Assembly: GCA_965219575.1 (NCBI GenBank)
Contig: OZ244779.1
Location: 460,769-524,768 of the forward strand
DNA: 64,000 bases
Direction: 5' to 3'
DNA from: Candidatus Oxydemutatoraceae bacterium
Lineage (GTDB): Bacteria > Pseudomonadota > Gammaproteobacteria > Poriferisulfidales > Oxydemutatoraceae
How positions within the stretch are numbered: position 1 is the stretch's first letter; every line of letters starts with the position of its first letter. The translations under genes were made by a program, and so were the position numbers. Positions 25,901 through 60,433 of the stretch are shown one piece after another. The notes beneath the pieces were generated by a model, which worked only from the letters and a program-made list of their open reading frames with translations, was not told the origin of the DNA and did not search any database.

Positions 25901-25906
25901 AACCGT

Positions 25907-26607: not shown

Positions 26608-26609
26608 GT

Positions 26610-30063: not shown

Positions 30064-30125
30064 AAATAGAATTCAAAGAAATAAGGGTGCGTGTATTTGT
30101 GGATAACTATAGCGTAAAGACTTGA
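30060..30125 (+). pseudogene. Truncated 5' remnant of the DUF262 gene
   Basis: MKIEFKEIRVRVFVDNYSVKT* resembles the start of 31110 (MKIELREITVRKLVDGY) and has the same ATGA overlap with an MTase stop. Confidence 0.75.
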
Positions 30126-30135
30126 GAGCATAAAT

Positions 30136-33773: not shown

Positions 33774-33844
33774 TGCCTCTGATGCCGTCATAACGGACGG
33801 ACTTTTCACAAAACTATAGTGTTCTTACCCGGTAATACTTGATG

Positions 33845-36683: not shown

Positions 36684-38031
36684 GGGAATTATATACTTAA
36701 ATACATAAATCAGTCTCGCTTCTCTAGCTTAAAGCGAGTATTTAGTTCCTTAGTTGTGGGGTTTTTGTTCTGATACTTTGTGCGATTAGGGGTAGGCTTT
36801 AGCAACACCTCTTTTATAGCTTCCTTAAAATCCCTTTCGTTTATTGGTTTATGATCTTTAGGGTTCATTTCTTAAACTTTCGCTTACTTCACTTGACAAC
36901 GCTGGCAACATACTTGTTGGCGATTGCAGCTGTGTTATGAAACCGCTCTAAGCTATCCACTTTAATTACTGCCGGTAAGTTCTTTATAACTTAATCGCTT
37001 ACCCAAAAAGCCTTTAGCTAGTGCTGCCATGCGCTCTAGGGTATCTACTTGACAGTTTCCTTTGTTCAATCTAAAAGAAAACTCATCTACATATCTCGGC
37101 AAATGCTTTATGCTGACATGATGATAAGTTCCGCTTAATCCGCGCTTAAGCAAAGCCCATACGCTTTCTATGCCGTTGGTATGTGTCATGCCATTGACAT
37201 ATTCCTTCACCAAATGATTGACTGTATCATGTTTGTAGAGCATACCACTGACACTCAAATAACCTGAATGTTCATCAGTATATAATTGGCTACCGATTTC
37301 TACATTGCTAGTTATTGCTCTGTGTAGTGTAGGTTGCTTGGTGTTTGCAACTGGCATCGCTTTAGTTCTACCGCATCTCTCGCGCATGCCGAGTATGATA
37401 GATTTCCCAACCACACCTCTGCCAGATTTCAACTGCTTGTTCTCGTGCTTGTTCCGTTCCTTACCACCAATATAGGTTTCGTCTATTTCCACTGAACCCG
37501 ATAGCTTAAAAGCACCTTGCTTGCATGCCTCACGGACACGCTGTAGCATAAACCAAGCCGACTTTTGAGTAATGCTTAATTCCTTTGATAGCTGTAAAGA
37601 CGATACACCTTTACGCGCCGTTAGAATTAAATAACAAACAATCGCCCATTTTGTTAAAGGCAATTTTGAAGCATGCATTAGCGTCCCAGTTTTGACCGTA
37701 AATGTGTATTGTGGACTACACGAATTACAGCAATAAGCGTGCTGGTGTTGCTTATCTCTACGCTTAACTATGTTATCCTCTGAATTGCATTTAGGACATA
37801 CTGGGGTGCCGTTCCAACGCACAGCTTCAAACCATTTACTCGCTTTGTATTCAGTGGAAAACATCTTTTGCAACTCTAGTATGCCGATTGTTTTAGCTCG
37901 TCTTTTCATGTTTATCTCCATAGGTTATTTGTGTATCATTGTGTCACAAAATTAAAATAAATAAAACCTTAAATAACCCTTGAATTATATAGCTTTCATT
38001 AATCAGTTATGTATTTAAGTATATAATTCCC
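36684..38031 (-). mobile_element. IS1595-family insertion sequence (1348 bp), transposase 36962-37921
   Basis: TIR GGGAATTATATACTTAAATACATAA; 8-bp TSD ATTTTTTT; zinc ribbon CPKC/CNSC, VEIDETYIGG, YTDE, HTNGIESVW. Confidence 0.93.
36710..36868 (-). CDS. Small basic passenger ORF (52 aa) within IS1595
   Basis: MNPKDHKPINERDFKEAIKEVLL...NPTTKELNTRFKLEKRD*, downstream of the transposase and inside the TIR. Confidence 0.4.
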   Translation of the reverse strand: MNPKDHKPINERDFKEAIKEVLLKPTPNRTKYQNKNPTTKELNTRFKLEKRD

Positions 38032-39668: not shown

Positions 39669-39897
39669 TTATTGTCTGCGCAAATACACTTTGAAATAAC
39701 ATAAGTATTAATAGTCATTCTGCACAATTGGTTATAGGCAAGATAACCAATTCAAGTGGTATTGCCATCATATATAAAAAGGCAAGAGTGACTGTAGAAA
39801 ACTGATGGATAGATTATAATGAAGTCCGCCACACAGTGCATTGTCAACGATGCTCGGTAAGCGCGGTAAAGTCTATAATTACTCAGCCTAAGAATGC

Positions 39898-41868: not shown

Positions 41869-41875
41869 AGAGAAG

Positions 41876-43006
41876 ATGAATAGAGAACTCGGTTTTGAAA
41901 ATTTAGAGAAGATTATGGGATGGGATGATGAAGATGCCCAGAAAGAATCCGATTGGCTTCGTTTTATGTCTAAATATAAGTACGATGATTATAGGGGATA
42001 TCTTGTTGGTGCAAGGTTTATTGAAAGTCTAGTTATCTGGCTTCAGCAATTTGAATCTAAGGATCAAAAAGCGGCTTATGAATATATAAAAGAAAACTTA
42101 ATTTATATCGGTCCTGCTGAAATACAACGACTTATTGGGAAATTTTTTTATGAAGAAGTGCAAAAAAATCTGAGAGAAAAAGTTGCCAAAACTCTGGGTG
42201 TTCCAGAGTATATGGTTTGGTCTTCAGAGAGAAGCGTGGATGAGTTTAAATCTGAAATTCGGAGAACATTGTTTATGGGGTTGAGTGATGGCGCACGTTT
42301 GGACTCCTTCAGAAGAGCTAATGCAGACATATCGAATGAGCAAGTTGTAATAACTACAGAGATTAATAATATCAAATGGGAGGACTTGCTTAAAGAGCTT
42401 GCCGATGACTCTAAAGATAAAGGTAAAGACAAGGAAAAACAAAAATTTGAGAGGGTTTATTTAATTGATGACTTTACTGCTTCTGGAACTAGTCTGATAA
42501 GGGAAGAAAAAAAAGAACTTAAAGGAAAATTAAAAAAGTTTGCCGATGCTCTAAAGCAAGCCCAAGAAAATTTAACAGAGCGTCTTTTTGTAAATAGATT
42601 TCAAATAATAGTCCACCATTATATTGGCACTTATCAAGCGAAGGAAAAAATTGAACAACTATATAATGAACCTTGGATTAAAAAAGAATTGGATATACCC
42701 GATATTCGATTTTCGTTTGGTATGCTTCTTCCTAAAGATATAAGGCTTATCCGCTCTTCCGAAGAGAAATTCGCAGATTTATGTAAAAAATATTACGATC
42801 ATTCTATATACGATGAGCACTTTAGAAAAAGTGGAGCTCCAGACGGAAAATTTGGATATGCTGAATGTGGCATCCCTCTAATCCTATATCACAATACACC
42901 CAATAATTCTCTTTCATTATTGTGGGCAGAAACTAAGGGGGATGAAGGGCATACTATGAAGCCCTTATTTAAAAGAGGACAACGTCATAAGGAATGGTCG
43001 GGATAA
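41876..43006 (+). CDS. Phosphoribosyltransferase-like protein (PRTase-CE-like)
   Basis: PRPP-loop LIDDFTASGTS; GLSDGAR; FGY..C..PL..YHNTPNNS. Confidence 0.7.
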   Translation: MNRELGFENLEKIMGWDDEDAQKESDWLRFMSKYKYDDYRGYLVGARFIESLVIWLQQFESKDQKAAYEYIKENLIYIGPAEIQRLIGKFFYEEVQKNLREKVAKTLGVPEYMVWSSERSVDEFKSEIRRTLFMGLSDGARLDSFRRANADISNEQVVITTEINNIKWEDLLKELADDSKDKGKDKEKQKFERVYLIDDFTASGTSLIREEKKELKGKLKKFADALKQAQENLTERLFVNRFQIIVHHYIGTYQAKEKIEQLYNEPWIKKELDIPDIRFSFGMLLPKDIRLIRSSEEKFADLCKKYYDHSIYDEHFRKSGAPDGKFGYAECGIPLILYHNTPNNSLSLLWAETKGDEGHTMKPLFKRGQRHKEWSG

Positions 43007-43010
43007 AATT

Positions 43011-44942
43011 ATGATTAATCCCTTCAAGAAAAGAGCCACTGAGTATTTGCGTGATGATGTGGCATTTTTGTCTGTCATTGCTCCGGAACCGTTGCATACA
43101 TTTTTTGAAAAGTATGCTAAAGAAGGGAAACTATATGACCGTCTTAGTATGATTGTTGGAACACCAGGAAGTGGCAAAACGATAATCTCACATCTACTAC
43201 AATATCAAACTGTTCAAACACTATTAGCAAATCCTCTTGCTGATCAATATAAACGATTAATTTATGCTCTCAGAGAATGTGGAATAATTGAAGTTTCAGA
43301 AAATACATTTTCTAGTACATTCGTTGGTTGTCGAATCCCGATGGAATCTGAATATAGAGACTTTTGGGAATTGCCCTATGACGACAATATCAAAATGGGA
43401 TTGCTCAAGTCCTTTTTACAGGCGCGCGCCATGCTTTCATGGTTAAAAAACATTGACATTGATCCTAATGTTGATCTTTTATCAGTAAAAATTCAGTTGC
43501 GTGAAGGTGCCGGTGTTGCCCAAAACAGTCTAGGGGGAAATGATGGCAAAAGCCTATTTGAAAAGGCTAGGGACATTGAGTCCTCTATATACGAAATAGA
43601 AACCGCTTTGGTGCCGCCCTCGGAAGAGAAATTGAGTAGTAACATTGCATCAGGATCTTATCGTCCTTTTGACGCAATAGAGTGTTTTGTTGTCAATAAA
43701 ACGGATGGTCCTGCTTCGCTAAGACCTATGGTAATGCTTGATGATATTCATACCTTACATCCTAAACAATTATCAAATTTAGTTAATTGGTTAGCAAAAA
43801 GAGAGATGAAAATTGCTAGATGGATATTTATGCGACTGGATACAATAACACCTAAATCTATCTTTTTAGGGGAACTACATACAAACTATGATGTTGAATA
43901 TGAATCACCCATCAAGCAGAGCAGAGAAATCACTTATATTTGGTTGCAAGATCTAGAAAATAGAAAAGAAGCACGATCCGAATTTCAAAAAATGGCACAA
44001 ACTATGGCAAATAAATATCTACAACGCATGCCAATATTTGACCGCCAAGGGTTAACGGATTTTTCCGGTCTTCTTAACAAAAAAGTTGAGCCTATTAGCG
44101 ACCCTAAAATGAACAAACTGAAAAATAGGGTTGAAAAATTTGTCTCTAAAATAAATATCCATGAACAAATTTATCAAAAATTTGAAAAGGATATTGAATC
44201 GTATTTTTTAGGTGCAAAAACTATTGATAACTCAAAGGACGTAAAGTTGGCAATGCTTTACATTATGCTGAATAGATACCTAAAAAGAGTGCCTCAAAGG
44301 AGCTTATTTGATCAACCAGAATTCAAGCCGATTAAACCTAGTTCTGGTTTAGTAGATGGTGCAAAGATATTTCTTATGCATGAGTATGATCGCCCATACT
44401 ATTATGGGGTAGATACTGTTTGTCGTGGGAGTTCCGAAAATGCAGAGCAGTTTCTGCAATTATCTAGCCGGCTTGTGGACAAGATGGAAACAAGGATAAT
44501 TAGATCTAAGCCCGCGAACTTGTCCCCAGATTATCAGCATAAATTACTTAAAGAGCGCGCAGAAGAGATAGTTAAAGAATGGGATTTTCCAAGGAGCCGT
44601 GAAGTTAAAAAGTTATGTAAACTTATGGCTAAAGAATGTTTGGAAAAGAGCCGCGAACCCAACGCTCCTTTGAATGGAGGGGCAAATGCTATTGGTATTC
44701 CACGGGATGAGTTTGAAAAAATACTATCGGAATCGCAATATTCAGAGTTGAGAGAAATTTTAAAGTTTGGAATGGCATATAATGCAATTACTATGAAGCC
44801 CAGGCACTCTACCAAAAATAAATTATGGACTCTAATAGAACTGTCTGGGCCGATGATTATTTTTTCTGGTCTGACATTATTTAGAGGTGGGTTTTTAGAG
44901 AGAACTGTAAACGATTTATTAAGCTGGCTTAAAGAAGAGTAA
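43011..44942 (+). CDS. P-loop NTPase, ORC/CDC6- or STAND-like
   Basis: N-terminal NPF, Walker A GTPGSGKT, Walker B VMLDDIH, C-terminal helical region (YYYG..SSEN). Confidence 0.72.
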   Translation: MINPFKKRATEYLRDDVAFLSVIAPEPLHTFFEKYAKEGKLYDRLSMIVGTPGSGKTIISHLLQYQTVQTLLANPLADQYKRLIYALRECGIIEVSENTFSSTFVGCRIPMESEYRDFWELPYDDNIKMGLLKSFLQARAMLSWLKNIDIDPNVDLLSVKIQLREGAGVAQNSLGGNDGKSLFEKARDIESSIYEIETALVPPSEEKLSSNIASGSYRPFDAIECFVVNKTDGPASLRPMVMLDDIHTLHPKQLSNLVNWLAKREMKIARWIFMRLDTITPKSIFLGELHTNYDVEYESPIKQSREITYIWLQDLENRKEARSEFQKMAQTMANKYLQRMPIFDRQGLTDFSGLLNKKVEPISDPKMNKLKNRVEKFVSKINIHEQIYQKFEKDIESYFLGAKTIDNSKDVKLAMLYIMLNRYLKRVPQRSLFDQPEFKPIKPSSGLVDGAKIFLMHEYDRPYYYGVDTVCRGSSENAEQFLQLSSRLVDKMETRIIRSKPANLSPDYQHKLLKERAEEIVKEWDFPRSREVKKLCKLMAKECLEKSREPNAPLNGGANAIGIPRDEFEKILSESQYSELREILKFGMAYNAITMKPRHSTKNKLWTLIELSGPMIIFSGLTLFRGGFLERTVNDLLSWLKEE

Positions 44943-44944
44943 AC

Positions 44945-46087
44945 ATGACTGTCTCCTCTGGAGGGAATGGAAATAGATGGGAATTATGTATCGACCACTA
45001 CGACGATGCAGTGTCCGAATTTTTTGAGCAACACTTTTCGGAAGAACATAGGGAGTGCCTTTTCATTGGAAGCGTAGGATTTGATCCTAGAAGTAACATC
45101 ATAGTTAAAGAATTATGCTCTATTATGGAAGAGCGTTTACATATTATCTTACTGGAAGAGATACGTTCTAGCTCCGATTTAGAGTTAGTAAAAAGAACAA
45201 AGGGAAATATAGCCGAAGCTAAAAACCTATCTTCCCAAACCAAAGTTTTAGAAATAAATATATTTTCAGAACATGATGGGGCTGTAGTTGGAGGTATCGG
45301 TATTCTCAATCGCATAAAAGAAATAGATATTACTAACTATGCTGATATTGTTATTGATATGAGTGTATTTTCTGTTGGTGTCAGCTTCCCTCTCGTTAAA
45401 TATATTTATGAATGGGCAAATAACGCTAAAAAGCCCGTTAATGTTCATTTGACATTTACTTCTAATAACGAACTAGATTCTTACATATCTGAATCTTCGA
45501 CTTTAACTGATTATGCAACCAATGTTAGAGGATTCCCAACCCCCAATTTGTTGGGGGCAGGAGAAAAAGCGAAACTTTGGCTTCCTCTAATGTCTACCGA
45601 TAAAGAGAGGATTTTGAGTAAAATTTATGATAGAACAAAACCGCATGATATCTTTCCTATTTTTCCATTTCCATCAGAAGATCCTAGAGAAGGAGACAAA
45701 CTTGCCGCTATTTATTATAGGGAAGAGTTAGGAAGCCTTTGGGAAGTTGACCCACAAGATTTTATATATACAGACGAAGAAAGACCTCTGGATATTTACC
45801 GAACTATTATGAGAATTAATGAAGACCGTGAACTGGTATTTAAGACATTTGGCGGATCAATGCTAATTTTATCTCCTCTAGGTAGTAGAATGCCAGCTAT
45901 TGGTATGTTGATGGCTGCACTAGAAGGCGGGTTTCCTGTCGTGTATGTTGAGACATTAAATTATCATGTCGAGGATTGGGGAAAAGTTGATGAAACATCA
46001 CAGGAGGAGAATATGGAAATTGCCCATTTTTGGCTTTACGGGGAAGCCTATTATAATGACAAAAAGAAATTTGAATCCTTGAAATAA
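44945..46087 (+). CDS. Hypothetical protein, possibly tandem Rossmann (CARF-like) domains
   Basis: GFDPRS, IVIDMS, ILSPLGSRMPAIG, VVYVE; fold assignment is inference only. Confidence 0.55.
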   Translation: MTVSSGGNGNRWELCIDHYDDAVSEFFEQHFSEEHRECLFIGSVGFDPRSNIIVKELCSIMEERLHIILLEEIRSSSDLELVKRTKGNIAEAKNLSSQTKVLEINIFSEHDGAVVGGIGILNRIKEIDITNYADIVIDMSVFSVGVSFPLVKYIYEWANNAKKPVNVHLTFTSNNELDSYISESSTLTDYATNVRGFPTPNLLGAGEKAKLWLPLMSTDKERILSKIYDRTKPHDIFPIFPFPSEDPREGDKLAAIYYREELGSLWEVDPQDFIYTDEERPLDIYRTIMRINEDRELVFKTFGGSMLILSPLGSRMPAIGMLMAALEGGFPVVYVETLNYHVEDWGKVDETSQEENMEIAHFWLYGEAYYNDKKKFESLK

Positions 46088-46098
46088 ACAAGTGGATT

Positions 46099-47148
46099 AT
46101 GAATAGATACCTACCAAGCGTTTATGGCACAGGCTTAGTTTCGCTAGACATTATTATAAGTATGCGCCCCGAAGAGCATTATCACTGGTCTGGTGGTACA
46201 TGTGGCAATGTTCTGACCATATTAAGTTATTTAGGATGGGAATCTTTTCCTATCGCTCGGTTAAATTCCGATGCTGCCTCAGTTCGTGTGAGAGCAGATA
46301 TGGAACGCTGGAATGTTCGCTTAGATTATGCCGAGCAATCACCTACGACCAGTACTCCGATTATTGTCCAAGAGAATTCGATCAATAGGCAGGGGCTATC
46401 CGTTCACAAATTTCACTGCAGACAGTGTCCTAGATGCGGCGCAGGGCTTCCAAATCACAAGGCAGTTACTCTTTCGGCTACTGAGCGGATAAAAGATGAT
46501 GTCTCGCAAGGAACCCTTTTCTTTTTTGATAGAACCTCTCCCGGTGCCATTAATCTTGCAAAACACTTCAAACGTATTGGGGCAATTATATTTTTTGAAC
46601 CATCTGCCAAGTCGGACTTAAGACAGTTAAAGCAGGCTCTAATGCTTGCAGACATCGTTAAATATTCGGATAAAAGATATCTTGAGCCAATGTCGGATAT
46701 CAAAGGTGCCACTTCTGCTTTCCTTGAGATTCATACTCTGGGGAGTGAGGGTTTGCGATATAGAACCCATGCCTCAAGCAGACTTAGTAGAAGATGGAAG
46801 AGATTACGGACTTTTCAGGCACGGCAATTCAAAGATAGCTGTGGTTGTGGTGATTGGACAAGTGCTGGTTTAATATCAAAGCTTTGTAATAGAAAAGCAG
46901 CACGCTTGAGAGGGGTATCAGAAAATTCCGTTATTACCGCACTAAATTATGGACAGGCTTTAGCGGTGTGGAACTGTGATTTTGAAGGTGCTAGGGGAGG
47001 AATGTATCAAGTAAAAAAACTTACATTTAAGAAACATATTCAACAAATACTTAAAGCTGGTGTTCTAAAAAGAGGAAATCGTACAAAAACACTAGAAAGC
47101 GAAATTTTTGATAGTGAAAGTTGTTGCTGCTACAGCTTAAGTGCATAA
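46099..47148 (+). CDS. PfkB/ribokinase-family carbohydrate kinase
   Basis: GTGLVSLD, GGTCGNV, IVKYS, TLGSEG, DSCGCGD anion-hole motif; CxxCxxC insertion. Confidence 0.82.
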   Translation: MNRYLPSVYGTGLVSLDIIISMRPEEHYHWSGGTCGNVLTILSYLGWESFPIARLNSDAASVRVRADMERWNVRLDYAEQSPTTSTPIIVQENSINRQGLSVHKFHCRQCPRCGAGLPNHKAVTLSATERIKDDVSQGTLFFFDRTSPGAINLAKHFKRIGAIIFFEPSAKSDLRQLKQALMLADIVKYSDKRYLEPMSDIKGATSAFLEIHTLGSEGLRYRTHASSRLSRRWKRLRTFQARQFKDSCGCGDWTSAGLISKLCNRKAARLRGVSENSVITALNYGQALAVWNCDFEGARGGMYQVKKLTFKKHIQQILKAGVLKRGNRTKTLESEIFDSESCCCYSLSA

Positions 47149-50300: not shown

Positions 50301-50637
50301 AGAGGTGTTATCCGACGACCCCGACGGTGGAACGAGCGGGACTGTGGTGTATCAATGGCAAGTATGTGAAGGGAGTAGAGGACGTTGTCCGCCGCCGCAG
50401 CAATGGCAGAATATTGATGAAGCCACTCAAACACAGTACATCATATCGGGTTCTAGCATTTTAGTAGGAAACAATCGATTCTCTCTGGTAGAAGACAGTA
50501 GCATATTTCGCATTCAAGCAACTTATCGCGACGGTCAAGGTTATCAAGAGAATGTTCGCTCGGCAGAACGTATTTATACGACTCGCCCGGTACTTAGGAT
50601 TCGCTCTAAAGTATTTTTGGAGGGTCCTCTCCAATAG
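47377..50637 (+). CDS. Secreted S8 (kexin/furin-like) serine protease with P-domain and Ig/cadherin-like repeats
   Basis: Signal peptide; catalytic D (IAIVDG), H (HATAVAG), N (AGGNG), S (GTSASTP); LSWRDV, YGFG, P-domain (LTSPSG..GVWRL); Thr/Val-rich beta repeats; ends LRIRSKVFLEGPLQ. Confidence 0.88.
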   Translation: MNILVLRILAKVLAIFFLGAGMQSVTAQSQEMGDPLYDRQWHLENTGRNTSQGIPGEDINVEPVWNTTLTNGVKIRGQGTYIAIVDGDLPIARQSTITELLAHPDLIENISTRHSVDYYPSVIDDDSHATAVAGIAAGRGYNAIGVRGVAPWAKVYSLNILGLPNGNRSISRIIERSVGLDAMVRHTTITSVSNNSWGSLDPFRPSGDALVAWEMAIETGIRNGFHGKGTVYTWAGGNGSCISRRIASNRYEQVCNIDTSNYDGRAKYHAVVAVCSVDNQGRHLAFSELGANLWVCAPSRGITTTSRGRRVIIRDRTIISTYRHDLYTTSFGGTSASTPMVSGVVALIRQVNPSLSWRDVKLILANSARQNDPEDDDWAQGAVKYGLSGDEDEARYHFNHKYGFGVVDAQKAVELAQGWINLPPVATTYTEVINRNIDLRLSADNLVINSSISVQSDINFIEHVQVPIGLTHPLIQDLSVELTSPSGVTSDLIIPSTYPISSTSSYAIGVSGFWRFGSSAHLGEDPSGVWRLRFESTRPTTGTLITWGVRIRGYQIKMDATSAVGLSGKNVVETPLPLSLIGASWEEDLQPEDFRLKNAPTGLRIASVSRTSDTQVALNLALDGRLARDYLFQVEATTSTVPNIRNSLISDDISIVLEVPEAPLLEITAQPEQAIEAGNSAEVEVSVADNNFDVGDRVTLTAESSSRTIVSVTTSAKTDEITTNTSITFMLTAVQGGEAMVTFTATDSRGLSVSKTILVRVDAMPTGRVGITPDSDDRWLLHGTSTIMDANGIAEKNYRWYRNDRIISGATGDSYEIPDNRNGRATGTRYRLEVSVVDNIGQSVTTQSNTITVANEAPVIDGQITALPSPVEEGRETVITVPAGDANYDSLTYSWSATGEHSGINISGNPATLIIPPDFVDAASTETTANLEVVVDDGSAATTGMVSVVVHKINNGSLTLRISIAVGSRATTLTAEVLSDDPDGGTSGTVVYQWQVCEGSRGRCPPPQQWQNIDEATQTQYIISGSSILVGNNRFSLVEDSSIFRIQATYRDGQGYQENVRSAERIYTTRPVLRIRSKVFLEGPLQ

Positions 50638-50890
50638 AACTGCCGATTGAGACGGTAGGTCAATCGGCAATTTAATTTTAGTCCGCCCGTAACGCGTTGG
50701 CCGGCACGATTTATACATTCATCCATTCAATTTATGGAAACCAAAACCATACGGCGCAAGCGGTTGGTGTCGTGCAGAACGGTACTTAAGGGCAGACACA
50801 CAGGTCTGCCCCTACGGCTTGGTGGTTATTATAAATTCACGGCGCAAGCGGTTACGGTTGCACGCTGACGATACTTTTTCAACAGCCCCA
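50638..50890. repeat. Mosaic REP/MITE repeat
   Basis: GCCGATTGA..TCAATCGGC, GGGCAGAC..GTCTGCCC and TTTTTCAACAGCCCC modules. Confidence 0.85.
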
Positions 50891-50959
50891 TTTCTTTTCT
50901 TTGGGCGTAGGCTTGTCAAAGCGCACTCGGAAAAAACCGTCGTCTAAGCGATTTACTGT

Positions 50960-51523: not shown

Positions 51524-51599
51524 ATGCACGGTTAATTAGACCTTAACTGGTTTATATTCAGGCGGTGCCTTCGCATCACCGCTCTAACGAATCGTACTC

Positions 51600-51790
51600 A
51601 TTAAACGGTCATGAGCGATGGCATGAAAGAAATTGCCGGCGATGGCGTATCCGGCATCATCGCTCTAATCTTCGGACAAGCCCAAAGTAGCAATAACCAT
51701 GCCCATATCAAATTCATGCCTCTTGAGTTTTCCCATCCTGATACCCAGCTATAATCGGTGAACCGGTAAATAGCGTTTGGGGTGGTTGTA
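51600..51790 (-). pseudogene. Degenerate, internally deleted duplicate fragment of the GHKL ATPase gene
   Basis: Matches ~55130-55255 and ~55360-55410 (TLFTGSPI.AG.QD; FFHAIAHDRLN), with a stop codon and a deletion. Confidence 0.8.
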
Positions 51791-51794: not shown

Positions 51795-52314
51795 GGGACT
51801 GTTGAAAAAGTATCCACGAACTGTAGGGCTGGTACATTCCCCTCCTTTGGAGGGGTGGCAGGCGCAGCCTGACGGGGTGGTCGCTGGGGTCTTGCACAAT
51901 GTCACGCCGATTAACCTACTGGCTTAATCGGCAGCTTTGTTCTGCCCGTAACGCGTTTCGCCTGCACGATTTATACATTCATTCATCCAGTTTATGGAAA
52001 CCAAAACCATACGGCGCAAGCGATTACGGCCGTGCAGAACGGTACTTTTTCAACAGTCCCACATGGGGCTGTTGAAAAAGTATCCACGAACCGTAGGGGC
52101 GGACTAGCATGTCCGCCCGTAGCGCGTTGGTCGGCACAATTTATACATTCATCCACCCGATTTATGGAAACCAAAACCATACGGCGCAAGCGATTACGGC
52201 TGTGCAGAACGGCACTTTAGGGCGGACATGCCAGTCCGCCCCTACAGCGGTTTATAAATATTCACGGCGCAAGCGGTTGAGTTTGAGCGATGCCCGCACT
52301 TTTTCAACAGTCCC
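51795..52314. repeat. Two tandem MITE-like elements (51795-52060, 52065-52314)
   Basis: Each bounded by GGGRCTGTTGAAAAAGT / ACTTTTTCAACAGTCCC with different internal modules. Confidence 0.9.
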
Positions 52315-52347
52315 ACATTTCTACTTTGGGTTGACATCTACACAATG

Positions 52348-53190
52348 TCACAGCCGTTCGGCTATTTTTTCTATTTCTTTTTGGTTGGATTGTGGGGTTT
52401 GCACTTCAATCGCTTTCCATACGCTCAGGTATCCGATTTGGTCAATGATTTTTTCCAATTTTTTATTGTCAATTTTTTTGTTTTTTTCGAGAAATAGCAA
52501 TAGTCCGCCGAATATGTTTTCCGAACTTATATAGCTTTTCCCGCTATGCATTTTTGCAGAAAACCCAGCATAATATTTTTCATCTAGAATTTTCAGTATA
52601 AGGCTGGGTTCCCTATCTATAATGTTGGACATTTTATCTGCCCACCGCCATCGCCAGTAGGCCTTTCCGAGATGAAAATCATTAAATACGATTCTCGTAC
52701 CTCTTGGTATCGGATTGCACATAGAGCGTAAAACTCTTCTAACACGCTTGTCTATTTTTCCTACCTCGCCGGATGCTAGGGCATTGTCAATCATATAACT
52801 GCCTGTGCCATTTGTATCCTTAGAGTCCGATGCCAAAAAAAGTGGCTGGATCTGATCATTCTCGATCATCTTGATAATCATATAACCCCAGAAATTACAC
52901 TTGCAGGCGACTTCATCGGGTAGCTCCTTAAATGCTTGCCAGATTTTTTCTTGAGTATCATAAGGCGGGTGAATGAATTCTCGCTCGGTAAATTGGTGTG
53001 TAAAATTAACCAGTTGACCATCGCTAGAATTATCCAGCAACTTCTTGTGTTTTAAGTGTCTTAGAAAATCATTTTTTCCCAATTTACAAGCAGCGAGAAA
53101 TTCTCTTTGTTCCTCCGAGCCTTTATTCTTATTCAACTCCTTACCAAAATCCTCCCAGAGCTCTCCATCAAGTATTTTATATTCACTCAT
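52348..53190 (-). CDS. Hypothetical protein, gene 4 of PAPS-reductase/GHKL operon
   Basis: Start overlaps the upstream stop; FWGY, RRVLRSMC, LGKAYWRWRW. Confidence 0.7.
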   Translation of the reverse strand: MSEYKILDGELWEDFGKELNKNKGSEEQREFLAACKLGKNDFLRHLKHKKLLDNSSDGQLVNFTHQFTEREFIHPPYDTQEKIWQAFKELPDEVACKCNFWGYMIIKMIENDQIQPLFLASDSKDTNGTGSYMIDNALASGEVGKIDKRVRRVLRSMCNPIPRGTRIVFNDFHLGKAYWRWRWADKMSNIIDREPSLILKILDEKYYAGFSAKMHSGKSYISSENIFGGLLLFLEKNKKIDNKKLEKIIDQIGYLSVWKAIEVQTPQSNQKEIEKIAERL

Positions 53191-54049
53191 CATCGGTTTC
53201 TGTTCTGATTTCACTTAGAGCGTAGGGATTCATTTTTGTAGATGCCAAACTTGGATCAAAGTCTTCATCCTCCCAGCTTTTTCCTGTTTTATGCTCTAGC
53301 ATTTGCAGGTGATTCAATAGTGCACCACCTATTTGGTTCTCCTCATGATTTAAACTCTGCATATATGCATAGGTTGCGCATAATGCTTGGGTAGCGATAG
53401 CCGAACCCATTGCTTCATCAATGCCATGGGGCTTTTCTTGATGAACTTTTACCAGTTGGTCATAAACATCTTTGCCACAATACAAACGAACAGGGGTCTC
53501 ACCCTCTCCAGCATGTTCCCTGACCTTGACTTCCATCTCACCATCGCCAAGTTCTTTTTTATGGACAAAATCCATTAAATAGAATAAGTCGCCTGTAGAG
53601 AAGGTTAGTTTGGGACCTATAGCAATGCGGGCATGTCTAGGTATGAAGAGAGACTCACCCAGTCTCCAAAAGTTTTTCAATCCCGATGAATCATCCACCG
53701 TAATTTTTGTGTCCTCCGAAGCGATAATGCTGGGCATAATCTCCGGAGCATAAGAAAAGTCTATCGGTATGGTTTGCGCAATAGTTATGGCTCCTTCTTG
53801 CATGGATGAACTACTTTTGTCATATAAGTGATGTTGTCGCTCGGAACTATCCCTGTAAAGCAACCTAACGGAAAACTGCGCTTTACCTTGTTCCAGTAAG
53901 TTTGAAATGAATGAATGACCTTTGAGACTGTGTTTTAAGTATATTTGGTTGTTGTCTTTTTTGGCTTTGACTTCATAAGCAATGGTTTCTATAAAATCAC
54001 TGCTGTCCCTTCTTAAAATCGGAAAATCAAGTATTAGATTATCTAGCAC
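53183..54049 (-). CDS. Hypothetical protein, gene 3 of operon
   Basis: GAGGAG RBS before GTG; FPIL N-terminus; beta-rich N-half, helical C-half. Confidence 0.7.
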   Translation of the reverse strand: MLDNLILDFPILRRDSSDFIETIAYEVKAKKDNNQIYLKHSLKGHSFISNLLEQGKAQFSVRLLYRDSSERQHHLYDKSSSSMQEGAITIAQTIPIDFSYAPEIMPSIIASEDTKITVDDSSGLKNFWRLGESLFIPRHARIAIGPKLTFSTGDLFYLMDFVHKKELGDGEMEVKVREHAGEGETPVRLYCGKDVYDQLVKVHQEKPHGIDEAMGSAIATQALCATYAYMQSLNHEENQIGGALLNHLQMLEHKTGKSWEDEDFDPSLASTKMNPYALSEIRTETDDE

Positions 54050-54070
54050 TTTGGCAACTCCTCGGATTTT

Positions 54071-55915
54071 TTAGCGTCGTTTCAACCCTAGCATGGGTGA
54101 TAAAGCGACTTTCATGTCTCCGATATCATCCGGTTTTTCAATTTCGGCAATCAAGTCGTATTCTCTATCTTTACGCAACGAACCCAATTTGATCTGAGTT
54201 TTACTATCATCGGAAACCTTGATTGTCTCACCGTTCAATTCGGCTGTTATGAAGTCAAGATCAGTGCCTTTTCCCTCATCACTATCTTCTCCTAGACTCA
54301 TTGACAAGTACACATCATCTCTAGCATTTTCTTGTTGTGTGGGAGTAATCCTTAACCGCACTTGCCATTTGCTACCGTTGTCTATATATCTAACGGCAGT
54401 CCTTGACTCTAGTAATCTGGAAATAACGGTTGGTGTGGGGTTTCCATTATCCTCTCTCGGTACTCGTTCTTTTTTCGGTTTGGGCGGTTTCCTTGATTTA
54501 GGAGTGGGACATGCTTCTTTGCTTTGTCTGTCCGATTTTTTGACACCGCTGACATTTTCCTTTGCTTCATTAGGTAGGGTGAATAACGGCAAATCAACAG
54601 AAGTCCGTTCTATCTTTTTTAAATAGCCAGCCTTCATCTCTCTGCTTAATTCTCTCAGTAGCCTTTTCAGCTCTTTCTCATATTCTTTGACAAGTAGACC
54701 TCTCTGCAATCTATTATGATAGGGTCCTTCGGCATTTTTTACTAACTCAAATAATTCTGGAGCATTATGTTTATCAATATCAATAATTGCGGTAAAAGGT
54801 TCAAAATCTGGTTCTTTTCTTAAGTTGTTTACGTCCGTAGATAACATGGAGTCGTGGCGGGCGACGACCATCCCATTCCTAACCAGTATGATAGCGGAAT
54901 TGGTGTTTTTGTCGCTTTTGATGCACACATGGACCTTATCGGAATTACTAAGTGCAATGATTTTTTGCGAACCTTGCTCTTGAAGCGTCTGCCACGCTTG
55001 AAAGACCATTTTGCCTGATAGTATATTGTCTCCCCGTGCTTGTTTAACCTCTTTTTTCCCGCCGATCAGTTGTTCAACTCGGTCATCGGAGATTTCCTTC
55101 GCATCACCGTCCTTATGAATGGTAATGTTTAAACGATCATGAGCGATGGCATGAAAGAAGTTACTAACGATGGCGTATTCGGCATCATCGCTCCAATCTT
55201 CGGACAAGCCCAGAATAGCAACGACCGTGCCGGTATCAAATTCGTGCATCTTGGGTTCGATAAAAGCTGGAGGTTTGCTGAGGTAAGTGAACTTTGGATT
55301 TTTTTCATTCTCGGGCTTCTCCGTTACAATCCTGCCTCTATTGCCTCGTTCAGCGTCTACATCCTGATGTCCGGCTAAAATTGGTGATCCGGTAAATAGT
55401 GTTTTTGGAGTGCCGTTGTCCTTATACTTTGAGGCATAAAGCACATAGCGGAGCGATGAGAGCGAATAGCTCGATAAATTACCCACCCCATAGGAACCGC
55501 CTGACTCTTCATCACCTTTGATACTATGACCTCCTGCCAGCATGCCGTCGAGCCGATCTGGGTTCATTCCCACGCCATTATCGGCAAACATTAGTACTTC
55601 TAGTTCTTTTCTCTTTAAGGCTTCTTTAATTGGCGCAATCCTTTGTTCTACGTTTTTGTTGTAACTTCCCTTATCTTTTACTGTCTTAATGGCTTTATCT
55701 AAGACTTCTCTGTATTTTTCAATATGTGGAATTTCACTTACGGAGATTGTTTCGATGTATATATCTACTTTGCACTTATTGTGTGCTTCTTTGGAAGCAT
55801 CTAGTGCATTTTGCAGTAACTCTCTAATCGGATTCGTGTAGCCTTCTTTTTTATCCGCCAAGTCACTTCCGGTAAATCCTTCCATTTTGCCGAGCCTGAA
55901 ATAAAGTTCTGACAT
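54071..55915 (-). CDS. GHKL (HATPase_c/MORC-like) ATPase
   Basis: RELLQNALDA, ADNGVGM, GGSYGVG, GTVV motifs; RNGM, AEGPYH. Confidence 0.8.
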   Translation of the reverse strand: MSELYFRLGKMEGFTGSDLADKKEGYTNPIRELLQNALDASKEAHNKCKVDIYIETISVSEIPHIEKYREVLDKAIKTVKDKGSYNKNVEQRIAPIKEALKRKELEVLMFADNGVGMNPDRLDGMLAGGHSIKGDEESGGSYGVGNLSSYSLSSLRYVLYASKYKDNGTPKTLFTGSPILAGHQDVDAERGNRGRIVTEKPENEKNPKFTYLSKPPAFIEPKMHEFDTGTVVAILGLSEDWSDDAEYAIVSNFFHAIAHDRLNITIHKDGDAKEISDDRVEQLIGGKKEVKQARGDNILSGKMVFQAWQTLQEQGSQKIIALSNSDKVHVCIKSDKNTNSAIILVRNGMVVARHDSMLSTDVNNLRKEPDFEPFTAIIDIDKHNAPELFELVKNAEGPYHNRLQRGLLVKEYEKELKRLLRELSREMKAGYLKKIERTSVDLPLFTLPNEAKENVSGVKKSDRQSKEACPTPKSRKPPKPKKERVPREDNGNPTPTVISRLLESRTAVRYIDNGSKWQVRLRITPTQQENARDDVYLSMSLGEDSDEGKGTDLDFITAELNGETIKVSDDSKTQIKLGSLRKDREYDLIAEIEKPDDIGDMKVALSPMLGLKRR

Positions 55916-55927
55916 ACCTTCTCCTAA

Positions 55928-57181
55928 CTAGTCTGTACAATTACAAGGGATATAGCTTTCATCCTCCAGATAATCTGCATCCGTGTTGTCAAACTGATTT
56001 TTGATAGCGGGATAAACCCAGTGATTGGTTGCTCCAAAAAAGCTGATATAAGCCACATTTCTCTTTGATTTGATTGGTCTTTTTTCTGCTTTCAGATCAC
56101 GACTATACTTGCGCTCCATTTCAATCCACCAGTCTATCGATGCGGGCGTGTTATCGGGCATGTTTTGAGATAGTTCACTTTGCGCAATCTGTATCAATTT
56201 CCTTTTACCCTTTAATGGGCAATACACACAGTTCGAGAAAATCCCGTTATCGGGTAGGTCTAAATCAAACGGCTGCTTTTTCCAAAAATCAATGACATCC
56301 TGCTTAGAGATATTATTATCTACTAACGGTGCGTAAATGCTTTCTTTTGGTGGTTGCTCGGTAGGAGATCGCCTTTTTTGGTTTTGCGAGTATGCAATTC
56401 TGTCTCTGATTTTCTCTACTCGGATTTCTTCGTCCTTTCGTATGCCCAAACAGGAAACATACGCGATCGCTTTATCACCGAACAGTTGACCTTTGCCGCC
56501 TAGAACCGAATTTTTGATTGACTCGTTATTCATGCACAACTGGCTTTTCGTAAAGTCTTTCCACATCGCAGCTTCTCTGACAAAGGTTTGTTTTCTGGAA
56601 AACGATTTTTTTGCTAATAAGATATTATCCGGTGTCTTCCCTCCATTGGCTCGGTGATGTCGGATGACTTCTTCTGCGCTCATTTTGGGTTCATTGCCGG
56701 TATGTCCGAGTCGTTCAATCCCCTCTTTCTGTGCCAACCAATCCGATAGAAATTCATTGGTGATCCTGATTTTCAAAGTTTTAGTGCAGATTCTAGACTG
56801 CATGTTGGGCAGAAATCCTGCATGTGAGACCATTTCTTCAAACGCTTCTCCTTGCCAGCGATAGCCGTGTGGGTTGTCCTCACTGAGTGGAAATTCATTG
56901 ACTAAGCGATATGTAGAGTTGCGCATCCATCCATGTCTGCCCGCATCCTCATAGGTTTGATATTCAACCCAGAAAAACGGGATATTATATTTATCCTCGA
57001 CTAACTGTTTCATATTTCTTGTAAATGCGTAGGTCGCCGGGTGCTCTGCAGATGTGTTGTTGAAGACAATCACGTCTCCTCTTTCTGGGCATAATGTGCC
57101 TTGCTTGAGCAGCTCCATCAGCATCATTCCCGATGAGCGGCCACCTGAAAATTTTACGATGTGTGGTTTGTTCATCGGCAA
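55928..57181 (-). CDS. PAPS-reductase-family (PP-loop, phage NinC-like) protein with cysteine clusters
   Basis: KFSGGRSSG, NNTSAEH, RICT..LK, GIRKDE, SNCVYCPLK, terminal PCNCTD. Confidence 0.78.
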   Translation of the reverse strand: MPMNKPHIVKFSGGRSSGMMLMELLKQGTLCPERGDVIVFNNTSAEHPATYAFTRNMKQLVEDKYNIPFFWVEYQTYEDAGRHGWMRNSTYRLVNEFPLSEDNPHGYRWQGEAFEEMVSHAGFLPNMQSRICTKTLKIRITNEFLSDWLAQKEGIERLGHTGNEPKMSAEEVIRHHRANGGKTPDNILLAKKSFSRKQTFVREAAMWKDFTKSQLCMNNESIKNSVLGGKGQLFGDKAIAYVSCLGIRKDEEIRVEKIRDRIAYSQNQKRRSPTEQPPKESIYAPLVDNNISKQDVIDFWKKQPFDLDLPDNGIFSNCVYCPLKGKRKLIQIAQSELSQNMPDNTPASIDWWIEMERKYSRDLKAEKRPIKSKRNVAYISFFGATNHWVYPAIKNQFDNTDADYLEDESYIPCNCTD

Positions 57182-57532
57182 AGTCTATCTTGTGCAGCCG
57201 AGTAAGCTATACACCGTTTCAGCGGCTTCAGTTTGAGTATTTTGCCTTGCATCAGTGGTTTGAGGCCTCTTCGTATAAACTTGCAAGCATTCAAATAATT
57301 GTATCGGAGAAATCGTGATGTGATGATGATATTGCATTAGGAATCTTTTCCAGAATGTTAGTATAAATGTGCTAATCGTAGCACTTTGCGGCAATGTAGT
57401 CAAAGATATAGTTTCTTCGACCTCTGGCAAAATTTACTGTTAATACTGGAGGAAGTTATCTAATTAACTGGAAACTAGTAATATGAAAATGCGCTTCGCC
57501 CGTTTTTTAATTTCTATTGCGCTTCATTTCCG

Positions 57533-58108
57533 CTATTTCTTCACCATTTCCATTTTAGAAGCCTCGATAGCCTCTTCCAGTTTCTCTTTTAACTCGGCGA
57601 TGGCTTGCTTGGTGTTCGCATGATTTTCCTTGAGTATCTTGGCGTGTTCCACAATTGCTTTTTCTGGTTCATCTACGCTTTTCCCTATTTTTTGATACAG
57701 TTGCAGGAGGTCGTTGTTGCGATGTAGCAAATCAATCATACACTTTGAAATGACATAAGTATTGATAATCATTTTGCGCAATTCGTCATCGGCAAGATAA
57801 CCGATAGAGGAAGCGTTGCCATCGTAGATAGTGAAGAAATTCTTGCCCATCGGATAGTGAATAGGAAAAGGCTGGTTTTCGCCTAGTTTTTCTATTTCCT
57901 TCCCGACATTTTCGTAATAACCATCCCATATAATTGTTATCTCGCTATGAATGGCTCGGAGCAGGTTTTCAACCAGTCCTTGTTCTTTTTGCTCGGCTGC
58001 CTTTCGTTGGCGGGATAAACTTACCAGTAGTGCTATTATGGTAAGCGCACTGCCGATTACACCGGCAACAATAGCCATGATAGCGATACCATATAATATG
58101 AATTCCAT
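57533..58108 (-). CDS. Hypothetical membrane-anchored protein
   Basis: AGGAG RBS; N-terminal TM helix; FFTIYDGNASSIG; coiled-coil C-terminus. Confidence 0.7.
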   Translation of the reverse strand: MEFILYGIAIMAIVAGVIGSALTIIALLVSLSRQRKAAEQKEQGLVENLLRAIHSEITIIWDGYYENVGKEIEKLGENQPFPIHYPMGKNFFTIYDGNASSIGYLADDELRKMIINTYVISKCMIDLLHRNNDLLQLYQKIGKSVDEPEKAIVEHAKILKENHANTKQAIAELKEKLEEAIEASKMEMVKK

Positions 58109-58285
58109 GTTTTACTCCTGATTAAGGTGAAGTGGATGTTCCAATGAGAGTTTATTGTATGCTACTTCCGACTTTCCTCAAAGACAACGATCTGCCCGGA
58201 GACAAGCGGTTTAGGTTGTGAACCATCCCTTCAGGCGGAGCCTGCCACCCTCACAGGAGGGAATAGCTGGTCTACAGATTTAGTT

Positions 58286-59476
58286 CTATTCCGGCATGAT
58301 CCTTTTCATAAAGCTGTCAAAGAGAGGGACTGTAAACTCTGTATCTCCATGAGAGGGGCTGTAGATCATTCCTTTTTTTATCAGTTTGTTTCTTAAAGGG
58401 GCTACACTTTGAGGGCTGACCCCTAATTTTTCGGCTATATCTCCTGAGCGATGACTTCCGCCACCGAAAGAGGCTAAAGCTCTAAGGTATTTCTTTTCTT
58501 TGGGCGTGAGCCTGTCAAAGCGCACCCGGAAAAAACCCTCGTCTAAGCGATTCAACGAATGTTTGTTCGCTTTTTTTACAACATCCAAAGTGATTATTTT
58601 TGAGTTGGATAAATTCCAGCATTGGTATCCCCACTCTTGTAAAAAATAAGGGTAGCCTTTTGTTTTGTTAAAGATCTCTTCGAGGGCTTTTTTATCAAAG
58701 CGTACATCAAAGGCTTCGGTAGGTTTTTGAAGGGCTTGAAAGGCAAGTTCTTTTTCAAGAGGTCCGAGATGAGGAAAGTCAAACATTCTTTCTGCATAAG
58801 ACTTTGAAGCCCCTACAAGGCTTAGCAGTTGAGGCAGTCCCGCACCTATCATTATCAGAGGAAGTTGTTTTTGCACGATTCTATGAAAAGCCATAATAAG
58901 CGCGCTGAGTTCTTTTTTTGATAAGTATTGAAGTTCATCTAGTATCAGGACTAAAACTGCATTGTGTTCTTTTATAGCTTCACCGACATGTTCCAAGAGA
59001 ATAGGAACATCGATTTCCAAATCACCGCTATCGGCAGAGCCTTTTTCCGGTTCAATATCTAAATCTAAACTTATTTCAATATCGCCGTACTTTAGCTTCA
59101 GGGATTTCAAAAAGCTCTTAAGTATACGAAAAGCCTTTTTAATTTTTTGACTATTTCCTTTATTTTGAAGGCTAAACAGTAGCTTTTGCAGATGAACGGC
59201 CAAGGTTGTAGAAAAGTGTTTTTTCTCATGAGCTTCTATATAGATGGAGTAGCAGTTGTATTTTTCTACAATGCCGTCAATTTTGTTCAAAAGAACCGTT
59301 TTCCCTACCCCTCTTAAGCCTACTAACAGGAAACTTTTTTCTGATTTTCTGCGGTGGAGTCGGGCTAGGGCGAGACGGGCTTTTTCTAAAATCTCCGAGC
59401 GACCTACCAGTGCCGGCGGAGGGGCTCCTGCGCCCGGAGAAAAGGGGTTTTCTATCTTATGTTCTTCGTAGTCCAT
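58286..59476 (-). CDS. AAA ATPase (AAA_16-like) with C-terminal winged helix
   Basis: NPFSPGAG, GLRGVGKT, ILDELQ, GYPYFLQ, RNKLIKKGMIY. Confidence 0.85.
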   Translation of the reverse strand: MDYEEHKIENPFSPGAGAPPPALVGRSEILEKARLALARLHRRKSEKSFLLVGLRGVGKTVLLNKIDGIVEKYNCYSIYIEAHEKKHFSTTLAVHLQKLLFSLQNKGNSQKIKKAFRILKSFLKSLKLKYGDIEISLDLDIEPEKGSADSGDLEIDVPILLEHVGEAIKEHNAVLVLILDELQYLSKKELSALIMAFHRIVQKQLPLIMIGAGLPQLLSLVGASKSYAERMFDFPHLGPLEKELAFQALQKPTEAFDVRFDKKALEEIFNKTKGYPYFLQEWGYQCWNLSNSKIITLDVVKKANKHSLNRLDEGFFRVRFDRLTPKEKKYLRALASFGGGSHRSGDIAEKLGVSPQSVAPLRNKLIKKGMIYSPSHGDTEFTVPLFDSFMKRIMPE

Positions 59477-60007: not shown

Positions 60008-60433
60008 ATGAGAACAACTTTTCTGGAGCTTCTATCAAATGATCCTATATTTTAGGGAATTATATACTTAAATACATAAATCACTCTCGCTTCTCTAGCT
60101 TAAAGCGAGTATTTAGTTCCTTATTTGTGGGGTTTTTGTTCTAATGCTTTGTGCGATCAGGGTAGGCTTTAGCAACACCTCTTTTTATCTCCATAGGTTA
60201 TTTATGTATCATTGTGTCACAAAATTAAAATAAATAAAACCTTAAATAACCCCTGATTTATATAGCTTTCATTGATCAGTTATGTATTTAAGTATATAAT
60301 TCCTATATTTTATGGGTTGTTAATAAGTATCATGGCTTTTTACCTTGGCTGTGGTATCGTAAAATTTATAAATGATATCCTAGATCTTGTATGGAAATGC
60401 AAAGACCGAATAAAGAATAAGAACAAAGATTAA
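60008..60433 (+). pseudogene. Small membrane-protein gene interrupted by a MITE
   Basis: Removing 60055-60304 and one TSD restores MRTTFLELLSNDPIFYGLLISIMAFYLGCGIVKFINDILDLVWKCKDRIKNKNKD*. Confidence 0.75.
60055..60304. mobile_element. 250-bp non-autonomous MITE derived from the IS1595 element
   Basis: Same TIRs and subterminal sequence as 36684-38031 with the transposase deleted; 8-bp TSD ATATTTTA. Confidence 0.92.

Follow-up and report, generated by a model that had tools for sequence, protein, structure and literature searches.

A four-gene cassette of a PP-loop enzyme and a GHKL ATPase trio: a candidate machine for placing sulfur in the DNA backbone

Introduction

What does a PP-loop enzyme of the 3'-phosphoadenosine 5'-phosphosulfate (PAPS) reductase superfamily do in an operon with a GHKL ATPase? 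The question is raised by a stretch of 64,000 nucleotides (the window; positions 460,769 to 524,768 of contig OZ244779.1) from the gammaproteobacterium Candidatus Oxydemutatoraceae bacterium, which carries four coupled genes, here named g1 to g4 and together called the cassette. A first-pass annotation had taken them for a candidate DNA-modification defence system, in which the PP-loop enzyme stands in the place of a methyltransferase and installs a mark, possibly containing sulfur, that the other three proteins read or enforce. Our analysis indicates that the cassette is most likely a machine, so far undescribed, for adding sulfur to the DNA backbone, with an ATPase trio (g2 to g4) that elsewhere works with DNA methylases. 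All four genes are real and intact open reading frames (ORFs), and the boundaries first proposed for them stood.

55928..57181, minus strand: g1, 417 residues; PP-loop ATP pyrophosphatase of the PAPS-reductase superfamily, predicted DNA sulfurtransferase
54071..55915, minus strand: g2, 614 residues; GHKL (Bergerat-fold) ATPase, PDC-M33A-like
53183..54049, minus strand: g3, 288 residues; N-terminal beta-sandwich and C-terminal helical part, distant PDC-M33B relative
52348..53214, minus strand: g4, 288 residues; all-helical, distant DUF6339/PDC-M33C relative

The spacers are 12 nt between g1 and g2 and 21 nt between g2 and g3, and g3 and g4 overlap by 32 nt. Scans with Pfam, PADLOC and NCBIfam models found no desulfurase, methylase, dndD/E or sspB/C in the operon, which bears out the first reading.

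Linkage of the four genes across genomes

The order g1-g2-g3-g4 is not a matter of chance, as it recurs in 12 of the 13 loci of the first genome scan; the thirteenth (L013) held a short PAPS_reduct protein of 277 residues. With L013 left out and L078 taken as the same record as L001, 25 other loci of the g1 family were counted. The first-pass annotation had staked its proposal on the PAPS-reductase-like gene being linked to the other three, and g2 or the whole trio stood beside g1 in 22 of these 25 loci (L001-L012, L033, L079-L084, L086, L088 and L089). The linked loci, counted as at least five phyla, belong to Pseudomonadota, Nitrospirota, Gemmatimonadota, Binatota and an alphaproteobacterial PS1 clade. 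In L084, L086, L088 and L089 the trio precedes g1 and is still linked. The remaining three loci carry a solo g1. One of them (L049, 8248-11777) lies in a stretch resembling an integrative and conjugative element, after a Toprim/topoisomerase gene and near KilA-N and DUF2857 genes; L085 is a methylase fusion, and L087 stands alone on an 11-kb contig. A separate protein of 734 residues (P0352) has topoisomerase domains joined to a g1 domain.

Full-length g1 was found only in the genome of the window and in one other genome (G063) of a 401-genome phylum sample, and in 11 of 400 scored genomes of a class sample, one further genome of which was not scorable. The g1 of the window shares 72% identity with a gammaproteobacterial copy and 67% with a Nitrospirales copy, a pattern suggestive of lateral transfer. 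A quick tree was built from 70 rows, leaving out representatives below 385 or above 500 residues and all those after P0261; its support values are from the Shimodaira-Hasegawa-like approximate likelihood ratio test (SH-aLRT) only, and a careful tree search did not finish. In this tree, a clade of fusion and solo proteins (support 100) is sister to the clade of desulfurase-less cassettes to which the window belongs (96), desulfurase-bearing cassettes form another clade (95), and phage proteins fall outside (99).

Exchange and fusion with cytosine methylases

A PDC-M33A-type GHKL gene was present in 8 genomes of the phylum sample, and its locus carried a C5 DNA methylase in six cases and g1 in two. 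At the six methylase loci the C5 methylase adjoins the GHKL gene, a gene for a protein of about 280 residues and a DUF6339-type gene; a Z1 helicase together with a DUF4420 nuclease is present as well at three of them, and Vsr at one. The PP-loop gene therefore stands where a methylase usually stands, as had been supposed, and the alternation of the two modifiers that a neighbourhood survey was to look for was found. No C5 methylase lies within about 8 kb of the cassette in L001-L013 or L033. Minimal loci of a modifier plus the trio exist with either modifier (L031 and the window).

The two modifiers are also joined in single proteins. A length-restricted search for the g1 domain (candidates of 452-1441 residues) gave 104 clusters, and 19 of them carry PF00145 and are thus C5-methylase fusions. 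P0209 consists of a complete C5 methylase (3.9e-70) and a g1 domain with 41% identity to that of the window; this protein carries the hallmark C5-methylase motifs FxGxG, PCQ, ENV, QxRxR and GNAV. The swap and the fusions with C5 DNA methylases tie g1 to DNA.

The fusions could also supply base flipping at a cytosine, and adenylation of a base carbonyl is within reach of PP-loop enzymes, tRNA thiolases and TilS being examples. The mark made by g1 might then be something other than a classical phosphorothioate (PT), for example a thiolated or otherwise substituted base, and the position of g1 outside all proven PT-writer families leaves room for this. ThiI, MnmA, Ncs6 and TtcA have the same pyrophosphatase activity, and a locus of a PAPS reductase plus an ATPase gave no PT in a liquid chromatography-mass spectrometry survey (PMC12914056). 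We nevertheless consider such a non-PT mark distinctly unlikely, for nucleases of a kind that recognises backbone sulfur accompany 3 of the 22 linked cassettes, the sole weak matches of g1 among defence models are PT writers, and its motif order is that of SspD.

The PP-loop enzyme

The PP-loop FSGGRSS and the cysteine clusters RICT, SNCVYC and PCNC, which had been read from the sequence, are present in g1. The PP-loop SGGRSS occupies residues 12-17 and fits the pattern SGGxxS near the N-terminus. Among 13 aligned members of the family, F11, S12, G13, G14 and S17 are invariant (13/13), and R15 and S16 are conserved in at least 90%. The five cysteines, 132 (RICT), 318 and 321 (SNCVYC) and 413 and 415 (PCNC), are also invariant in 13/13. 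An insert of about 85 residues lies at 153-240.

The best family match of g1 is phrog_424, a phage PAPS-reductase family (4.9e-34, 119 bits). It has no Pfam match, PF01507 (PAPS_reduct) giving nothing at E up to 0.1, and its relatives score 18.3-21.4 bits on that model, below the gathering score of 22.5 bits. Matches to PT writers are short. The PADLOC SspD model is matched locally (5e-8, 30.9 bits over 36 residues) and not over its full length, BrxP is matched locally with 16.2 bits, the PADLOC DndC model is matched weakly, and the DndC model TIGR03183 gives 19.6 bits against a cut-off of 290.4. A BLASTP comparison of g1 with the SspD of its own genome (E 6e-4) aligned the motifs only, in the same order (PP-loop, RxCT, GIRxDE). 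The order PP-loop, R-x-C-T, GIRxDE and CxxC is common to g1, this SspD and the phage homologues.

A tblastn search with g1 found 76 phage records of about 25-31% identity that are annotated as NinC-like or PAPS reductase. In an alignment with two phage homologues, R-x-C-T, N-C-x-x-C and the C-terminal cysteines were kept. The phrog_424 proteins share the same four cysteine positions; they differ in being about 225-290 residues long, in standing alone and in lacking the 85-residue insert, which is extra in g1, and the g1 family forms its own clade in the quick tree (99% SH-aLRT). One phage NinC-like gene lies two genes from a phage DNA methyltransferase gene. In a profile search of 1.84 billion representatives, 173 proteins, long forms among them, matched the g1 family at 1e-30 or better. 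No match came from scans of viral contigs with P0346 or the g1 profile, and plasmids gave just 6 weak partial matches. A metagenome scan with the fusion protein P0204 gave one 2-kb contig that was judged irrelevant. Single-sequence and profile searches of the PDB with g1 found no homologue, the sole row, a 14-3-3 protein (0.015), being dismissed as chance.

These features allow us to weigh the reading that g1 does not mark DNA and is either a passenger beside an independent GHKL trio or an enzyme acting on small molecules or RNA, at the extreme an assimilatory PAPS or adenosine 5'-phosphosulfate (APS) reductase. The solo loci would suit it, as would a nearest family of no known function and a genome in which the only PF01507 match is the sspD gene, with no separate CysH seen. 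CysH has its catalytic C-terminal cysteine in an ECGLH-type tail and is expected among sulfate-assimilation genes. The g1 protein ends in YIPCNCTD, unlike that tail, it gives no PAPS_reduct match at E 0.1, and its neighbours are a GHKL ATPase and proteins of no assigned family. A passenger is also hard to square with synteny at 22 of 25 loci across phyla, tightly spaced and kept where the order is rearranged, or with fusion to DNA methylases. We therefore regard this reading as very unlikely.

The GHKL ATPase and its two companions

The second gene encodes an intact GHKL ATPase, as annotated. Its Bergerat boxes are ELLQNALD (32), DNGVG (112) and GSYGVG (140), the N, G1 and G2 boxes. Residues 30-471 of g2 match the PADLOC model PDC-M33A, component A of that candidate system, at 7.3e-25, and the orthologue in L011 does so at 7.3e-37; the score on HATPase_c_3 is 23 bits, under the cut-off of 25. 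A basic linker and a C-terminal domain of no assigned fold follow. A PDB sequence search with g2 gave no match. At one locus from Halieaceae (L004, 9461-10732), the g2 orthologue is split by an insertion of about 1.27 kb, with a DDE transposase gene downstream.

The g3 and g4 of the window have no PADLOC match; their L011 orthologues match PDC-M33B (4.9e-6) and PDC-M33C (2.9e-4), and the operon positions of g3 and g4 are those of PDC-M33 B and C. Homologues form 68 clusters for g3 and 161 for g4, and Pfam DUF6339 is matched by 5 of 26 members of the g4 family. The structure prediction that had been proposed for both proteins used alignments of four locus sequences together with 21 of the 68 clusters for g3 or 21 of the 161 for g4; it yielded models and no specific fold match. 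The g3 model (pLDDT 78.9) has an N-terminal beta-sandwich and helices, and matched generic FN3/Ig-like sandwiches only (Foldseek template modelling score at most 0.24; best VIA Z 8.1). The g4 model (pLDDT 89.2, pTM 0.86) is all-helical, with no Foldseek match at E up to 0.001 and a best VIA Z of 5.5, which is below noise for helical proteins. In the ESM Atlas, g3 led to unnamed clusters (0.96) and g4 to a DUF6339 lead (0.87). Both proteins diverge strongly between methylase-linked and g1-linked versions, across which no catalytic residue is invariant. This pattern suits adaptors or targeting factors matched to the modifier or to the target sequence.

The trio might instead be an enforcer. The same sulfur mark would then be placed by g1 on self DNA, and the GHKL ATPase, g3 and g4 would act on unmarked DNA, by cutting with an unrecognised nuclease or by MORC-like clamping or compaction, so that the four genes would be a complete defence of the restriction-modification type. 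MORC proteins clamp or compact DNA. A C5 methylase is not known to need a helper for methylation, which favours an enforcing role of the trio. The Z1, DUF4420 and Vsr genes at methylase-linked loci and the minimal modifier-plus-trio loci fit this role too. The paraMORC paper finds such GHKL ATPases alongside C5 methylases, Vsr, helicases and nucleases in the operons of restriction systems (PMC2292703), and PDC-M33 was chosen as a defence candidate for being embedded in known systems (Payne et al., 10.1101/2024.01.29.577857). However, neither the Pfam, PADLOC, NCBIfam and PHROGs scans of g2 to g4 nor the fold searches with the g3 and g4 models found a recognisable nuclease or reader domain, and on this point the claim that the ATPase and the two other proteins read or enforce the mark found no support. 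Separate nucleases have moreover been recruited repeatedly, which would be redundant if the trio restricted DNA by itself, and no catalytic residue is conserved. We judge the enforcer reading rather unlikely.

Sulfur genes and nucleases in related cassettes

The additional genes of related cassettes suggest sulfur and PT. In 8 of the 22 linked loci (L007-L012, L084 and L086), the cassette encodes a class-V aminotransferase of the cysteine desulfurase type. It scores as SspA/DndA; these strong scores were rejected as specific evidence, because the SspA model also gives 595 bits on a housekeeping IscS and has matches in 14 of 14 control genomes.

A gene for a ScoMcrA-type protein of 300-325 residues adjoins the cassette in 3 of the 22 loci (L012, L084 with two copies, and L086). 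The protein has an N-terminal ScoMcrA-like sulfur-binding domain (SBD) and a C-terminal HNH domain, and matches PDB entries 5ZMM, 5ZMO and 5ZMN at 1.7e-11 to 4.3e-10, with 1.7e-11 to 6.7e-11 for 5ZMM and 5ZMO. Sulfur-binding-domain nucleases recognise the backbone Rp sulfur, and the sulfur pocket of the ScoMcrA domain consists of H116, R117 (lysine in most homologues), Y164 and P165 (PMC6224610). The equivalents of H116, R117 (as lysine) and P165 are invariant in all four cassette-linked SBD-HNH proteins.

SspE follows sspABCD in Ssp systems. A GmrSD-like gene of 530-710 residues accompanies 7 of the 22 cassettes, in two phyla; it follows the cassette in L007, L008, L010, L083, L084 and L086 and is embedded between g1 and g2 in L082. 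Its best models are HEC-05 (BrxU-like), and SspE is matched weakly.

The cassette of the window has no desulfurase, GmrSD-like or SBD-HNH add-on in its operon. The proposed sulfur-containing mark is supported by genomic context only. Since the plausible readers, GmrSD-like and SBD-HNH, are separate genes that the window does not have beside its cassette, the four-gene form is at most a candidate for a new defence system.

A resident Ssp operon and other related genes of the genome

The genome of the window (2.37 Mb) also has a canonical operon of sspBCD and an sspE-like gene, about 41 kb from the cassette.

G000:C1:559361-566425 (L054 6362-13426): ssp operon; DUF4007/sspB (253 bits), an ORF of 1096 residues, SspD (329.6 bits), a DUF262-like gene of 685 residues

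The 329.6 bits of this SspD cover positions 1-276 of the SspD model. The cassette thus adds a second PP-loop system to a cell that already has one. The DUF4007 gene of the genome sits in this separate operon, and g2 to g4 contain none. DUF4007 occurred in just 1 of 5 other cassette genomes, which argues that the cassette is in general independent of Ssp. The ssp operon has no sspA, and IscS-type genes are encoded elsewhere in the genome; the lack of sspA suggests that this cell already draws on sulfur supplied in trans. The genome gave no TIGR03183 match, and none in a DndE search in which the controls were silent as well.

C1:1840061-1840225 (L050 9065-9211): g1 remnant, 64 residues, 71% identical to g1 residues 37-85

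This remnant adjoins a convergent gene with GmrSD_N and GmrSD_C domains (L050 9482-10759), and the pair is probably a decayed second cassette.

Proposed mechanism

From the observed gene integrity, motifs, synteny, methylase swap and associated genes, we infer the chemistry, the substrate, the role of the trio and the assembly as follows. The cassette would correspond to the writing part of a DNA phosphorothioation system like Ssp, but with other partners, a reading to which we give an even chance. In this scheme g1 would use ATP, bound by its PP-loop, to activate a DNA backbone phosphate and would then swap a non-bridging oxygen for sulfur, delivered as a persulfide from a cysteine desulfurase. 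The invariant cysteines of g1 may bind an iron-sulfur (Fe-S) cluster or carry the sulfur. The desulfurase would here be a housekeeping IscS-type enzyme encoded elsewhere, and a dedicated operon enzyme in the deeper-branching cassettes. The GHKL ATPase with g3 and g4 would replace SspC and SspB, or DndD and DndE, and act as a targeting complex that clamps DNA with the help of ATP and guides the modifier to its sites, and the same kind of trio would serve C5 cytosine methylases in other genomes. In terms of Ssp, g1 would correspond to SspD, IscS or the cassette desulfurase to SspA, the GHKL ATPase to SspC, g3 plus g4 to SspB, and the GmrSD-like or SBD-HNH protein to SspE. Enforcement would be a separate add-on by one or both of these nucleases. 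As the window cassette has neither, it would mark DNA and probably not restrict by itself.

A bolder version is that the trio is a mark-agnostic writer platform, a MORC-like clamp that deposits marks and does not read them, and that can work with a C5 methylase or with a PP-loop enzyme that inserts sulfur. On this view the g1 family would form a PT-writer lineage of its own beside Dnd, Ssp and BREX type 4, derived from phage NinC-like enzymes, and that phage family would gain a DNA-marking function. We consider this version less likely than not.

Several points weigh against phosphorothioation by the cassette. Its g1 is far from every proven PT writer (SspD, 30.9 vs 329.6 bits; DndC, 19.6 vs 290.4), and no function is known for the phage NinC-like PAPS reductases, the named family nearest to it. 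Several of the cassette loci are kin, for example four from Longimicrobiales, and the three solo loci suggest that g1 can act without the trio. The Z1 helicase and DUF4420 nuclease at three of the six methylase-linked loci suit a restriction role of the trio. The desulfurase models identify a cysteine desulfurase and are not PT-specific, and the cassette enzyme could merely build the Fe-S cluster of g1. SBD-HNH and GmrSD enzymes are common in defence islands, where their normal target is modified foreign DNA, so their presence beside the cassette could be guilt by neighbourhood.

Comparison with known systems and significance

SspABCD-SspE is one of the closest parallels to the proposed writer. 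Both have a PP-loop enzyme with the same motif order, one ATPase and small accessory proteins of about 290 residues, and relatives of the cassette add an operon cysteine desulfurase (8 of 22) and a downstream DUF262/GmrSD-type nuclease (7 of 22). The cassette differs in the low SspD score and the 85-residue insert of g1 and in lacking DUF4007 (SspB) and the SspC-type P-loop ATPase, in place of which it has the GHKL ATPase and two unrelated proteins.

DndABCDE and BREX type 4 (BrxP) likewise have sulfur writers of the PAPS-reductase fold that replace a methylase in a modification-based system. The cassette departs from Dnd in the DndC score of g1, in having no DndD/E in the operon and in its GHKL rather than P-loop partner ATPase, and from BREX type 4 in the BrxP score and the absence of BrxC, PglZ and BrxL from the six scanned proteins. 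A swap between PT genes and cytosine methylases on a DndDE core has been described by Rakesh et al. 2024 (PMC10853773), a paper that does not mention GHKL, MORC or HSP90.

PDC-M33 has the same order of a GHKL ATPase, a protein of about 280 residues and a DUF6339 protein. Of the PDC-M33-type loci examined, 6 of 8 have a C5 cytosine methylase where the cassette has g1, frequently accompanied by Z1, DUF4420 or Vsr, and g3 and g4 match the B and C models through relatives only. It is a PADLOC phage-defence candidate (PDC), and Payne et al. list PDCs as untested candidates. The paraMORC GHKL ATPases resemble g2 in sharing operons with a DNA modification enzyme and in being mobile among phyla, and differ in that the window cassette contains no helicase or nuclease; the term PAPS occurs 0 times in that paper (Iyer, Abhiman and Aravind 2008, PMC2292703). 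Among the papers listed by full-text literature searches, judged in part by title and abstract opening, there was no published description of a cassette of g1 with the GHKL trio, and the searches found no mention of DUF6339 or PDC-M33. This analysis adds the counts of methylase swaps, the fusions with methylases, the link to SBD-HNH proteins with intact pocket residues, the embedded GmrSD gene and the resident canonical Ssp operon.

Phage genes for "PAPS reductases" are currently filed under sulfur metabolism, and a DNA-marking g1 would give the first functional lead for them. If our proposal is true, the few systems known to place sulfur in DNA gain a new writer family in g1, whose partner ATPase is not of the P-loop kind. 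One accessory machine would then serve two chemically unrelated marks, 5-methylcytosine and PT, which would bear on how modification systems choose their sites and on the role of prokaryotic MORC-like ATPases. The exchange of the cassette among marine symbionts of several phyla suggests relevance to phage-host dynamics in sponge and mussel microbiomes. A published neighbourhood hunt for PT systems demanded a P-loop NTPase neighbour (PMC12914056), so that a GHKL-partnered cassette could not have been found by it.

The surrounding defence island

The surroundings of the cassette form a defence island, and two further features lie next to the operon.

57375..57430, minus strand: pair of overlapping promoter-like sites within the 351-nt spacer that precedes g1 (consensus scan, 9/12 matches each)
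51569..51782, minus strand: relic of a second gene resembling g2, immediately downstream of g4 (tblastn, DNA identity)

The whole region upstream of g1 is not enriched in promoter-like sites compared with shuffled sequences. The relic gave tblastn matches of 73% identity over 52 residues and 81% over 16, and has 84% DNA identity to 55096-55257. Other relics in the window derive from the AAA_16 ATPase (50888-50959, 75% over 24 residues) and the membrane protein (39683-39823, 53% over 47 residues) that are encoded upstream of g1. Together these three relics indicate past duplication and decay in the island.

Upstream of g1, at 57533-59476, lie genes for a membrane protein of 191 residues and an ATPase of 396 residues with AAA_16 and MarR-type winged helix-turn-helix domains (phrog_6841, 6.6e-16). 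Both were rejected as cassette partners, having no counterpart in L001-L013. They share with the cassette a single contig of about 7.8 kb (52.2-60.08 kb) that was found with 0-2 differences in three runs from three studies; seven runs contain the whole cassette stretch, and no RNA run was among the 20 runs listed for it. On the g4 side this unit is bounded by high-copy short repeats.

The island holds several other systems. Two tandem EcoRI-like adenine methylase genes (91% identical over the first 300 nt) followed by a GmrSD_N-HNH gene occupy 29086-32192. A second, methylase-linked GHKL set lies at 33363-37921 and comprises Vsr, a C5 methylase (33845-34915, within the window and outside the g1-g4 operon), a protein of 421 residues of no assigned family and an apparently truncated HATPase_c_3 fragment of 153 residues. 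An IS1595-type transposase gene follows about 350 nt beyond this set, which the element apparently cuts, and the sequences flanking the transposase gene recur at 60046-60315. On the plus strand, 39898-47148 carries an operon of the conflict-system type, with a HAD-like fusion protein, PRTase-CE, an ORC-CDC6-like ATPase, a further unassigned protein and a PfkB-like kinase; an S8 subtilase of 1086 residues comes after it. IS3 copies are also present in the island.

Palindromic repeats resembling repetitive extragenic palindromes (REP) or miniature inverted-repeat transposable elements (MITE), with the core GTAGGGGCGGAC...GTCCGCCC, occur at 9179-10458, 12499-12814, 16072-16827, 23550-26828, 50634-50890 and 51804-52321 of the window; at 9.2-10.5 kb they form a tandem array whose period is about 194 nt. 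In metagenome contigs, word depth at these repeats reached about 10,000, compared with about 60 for the cassette.

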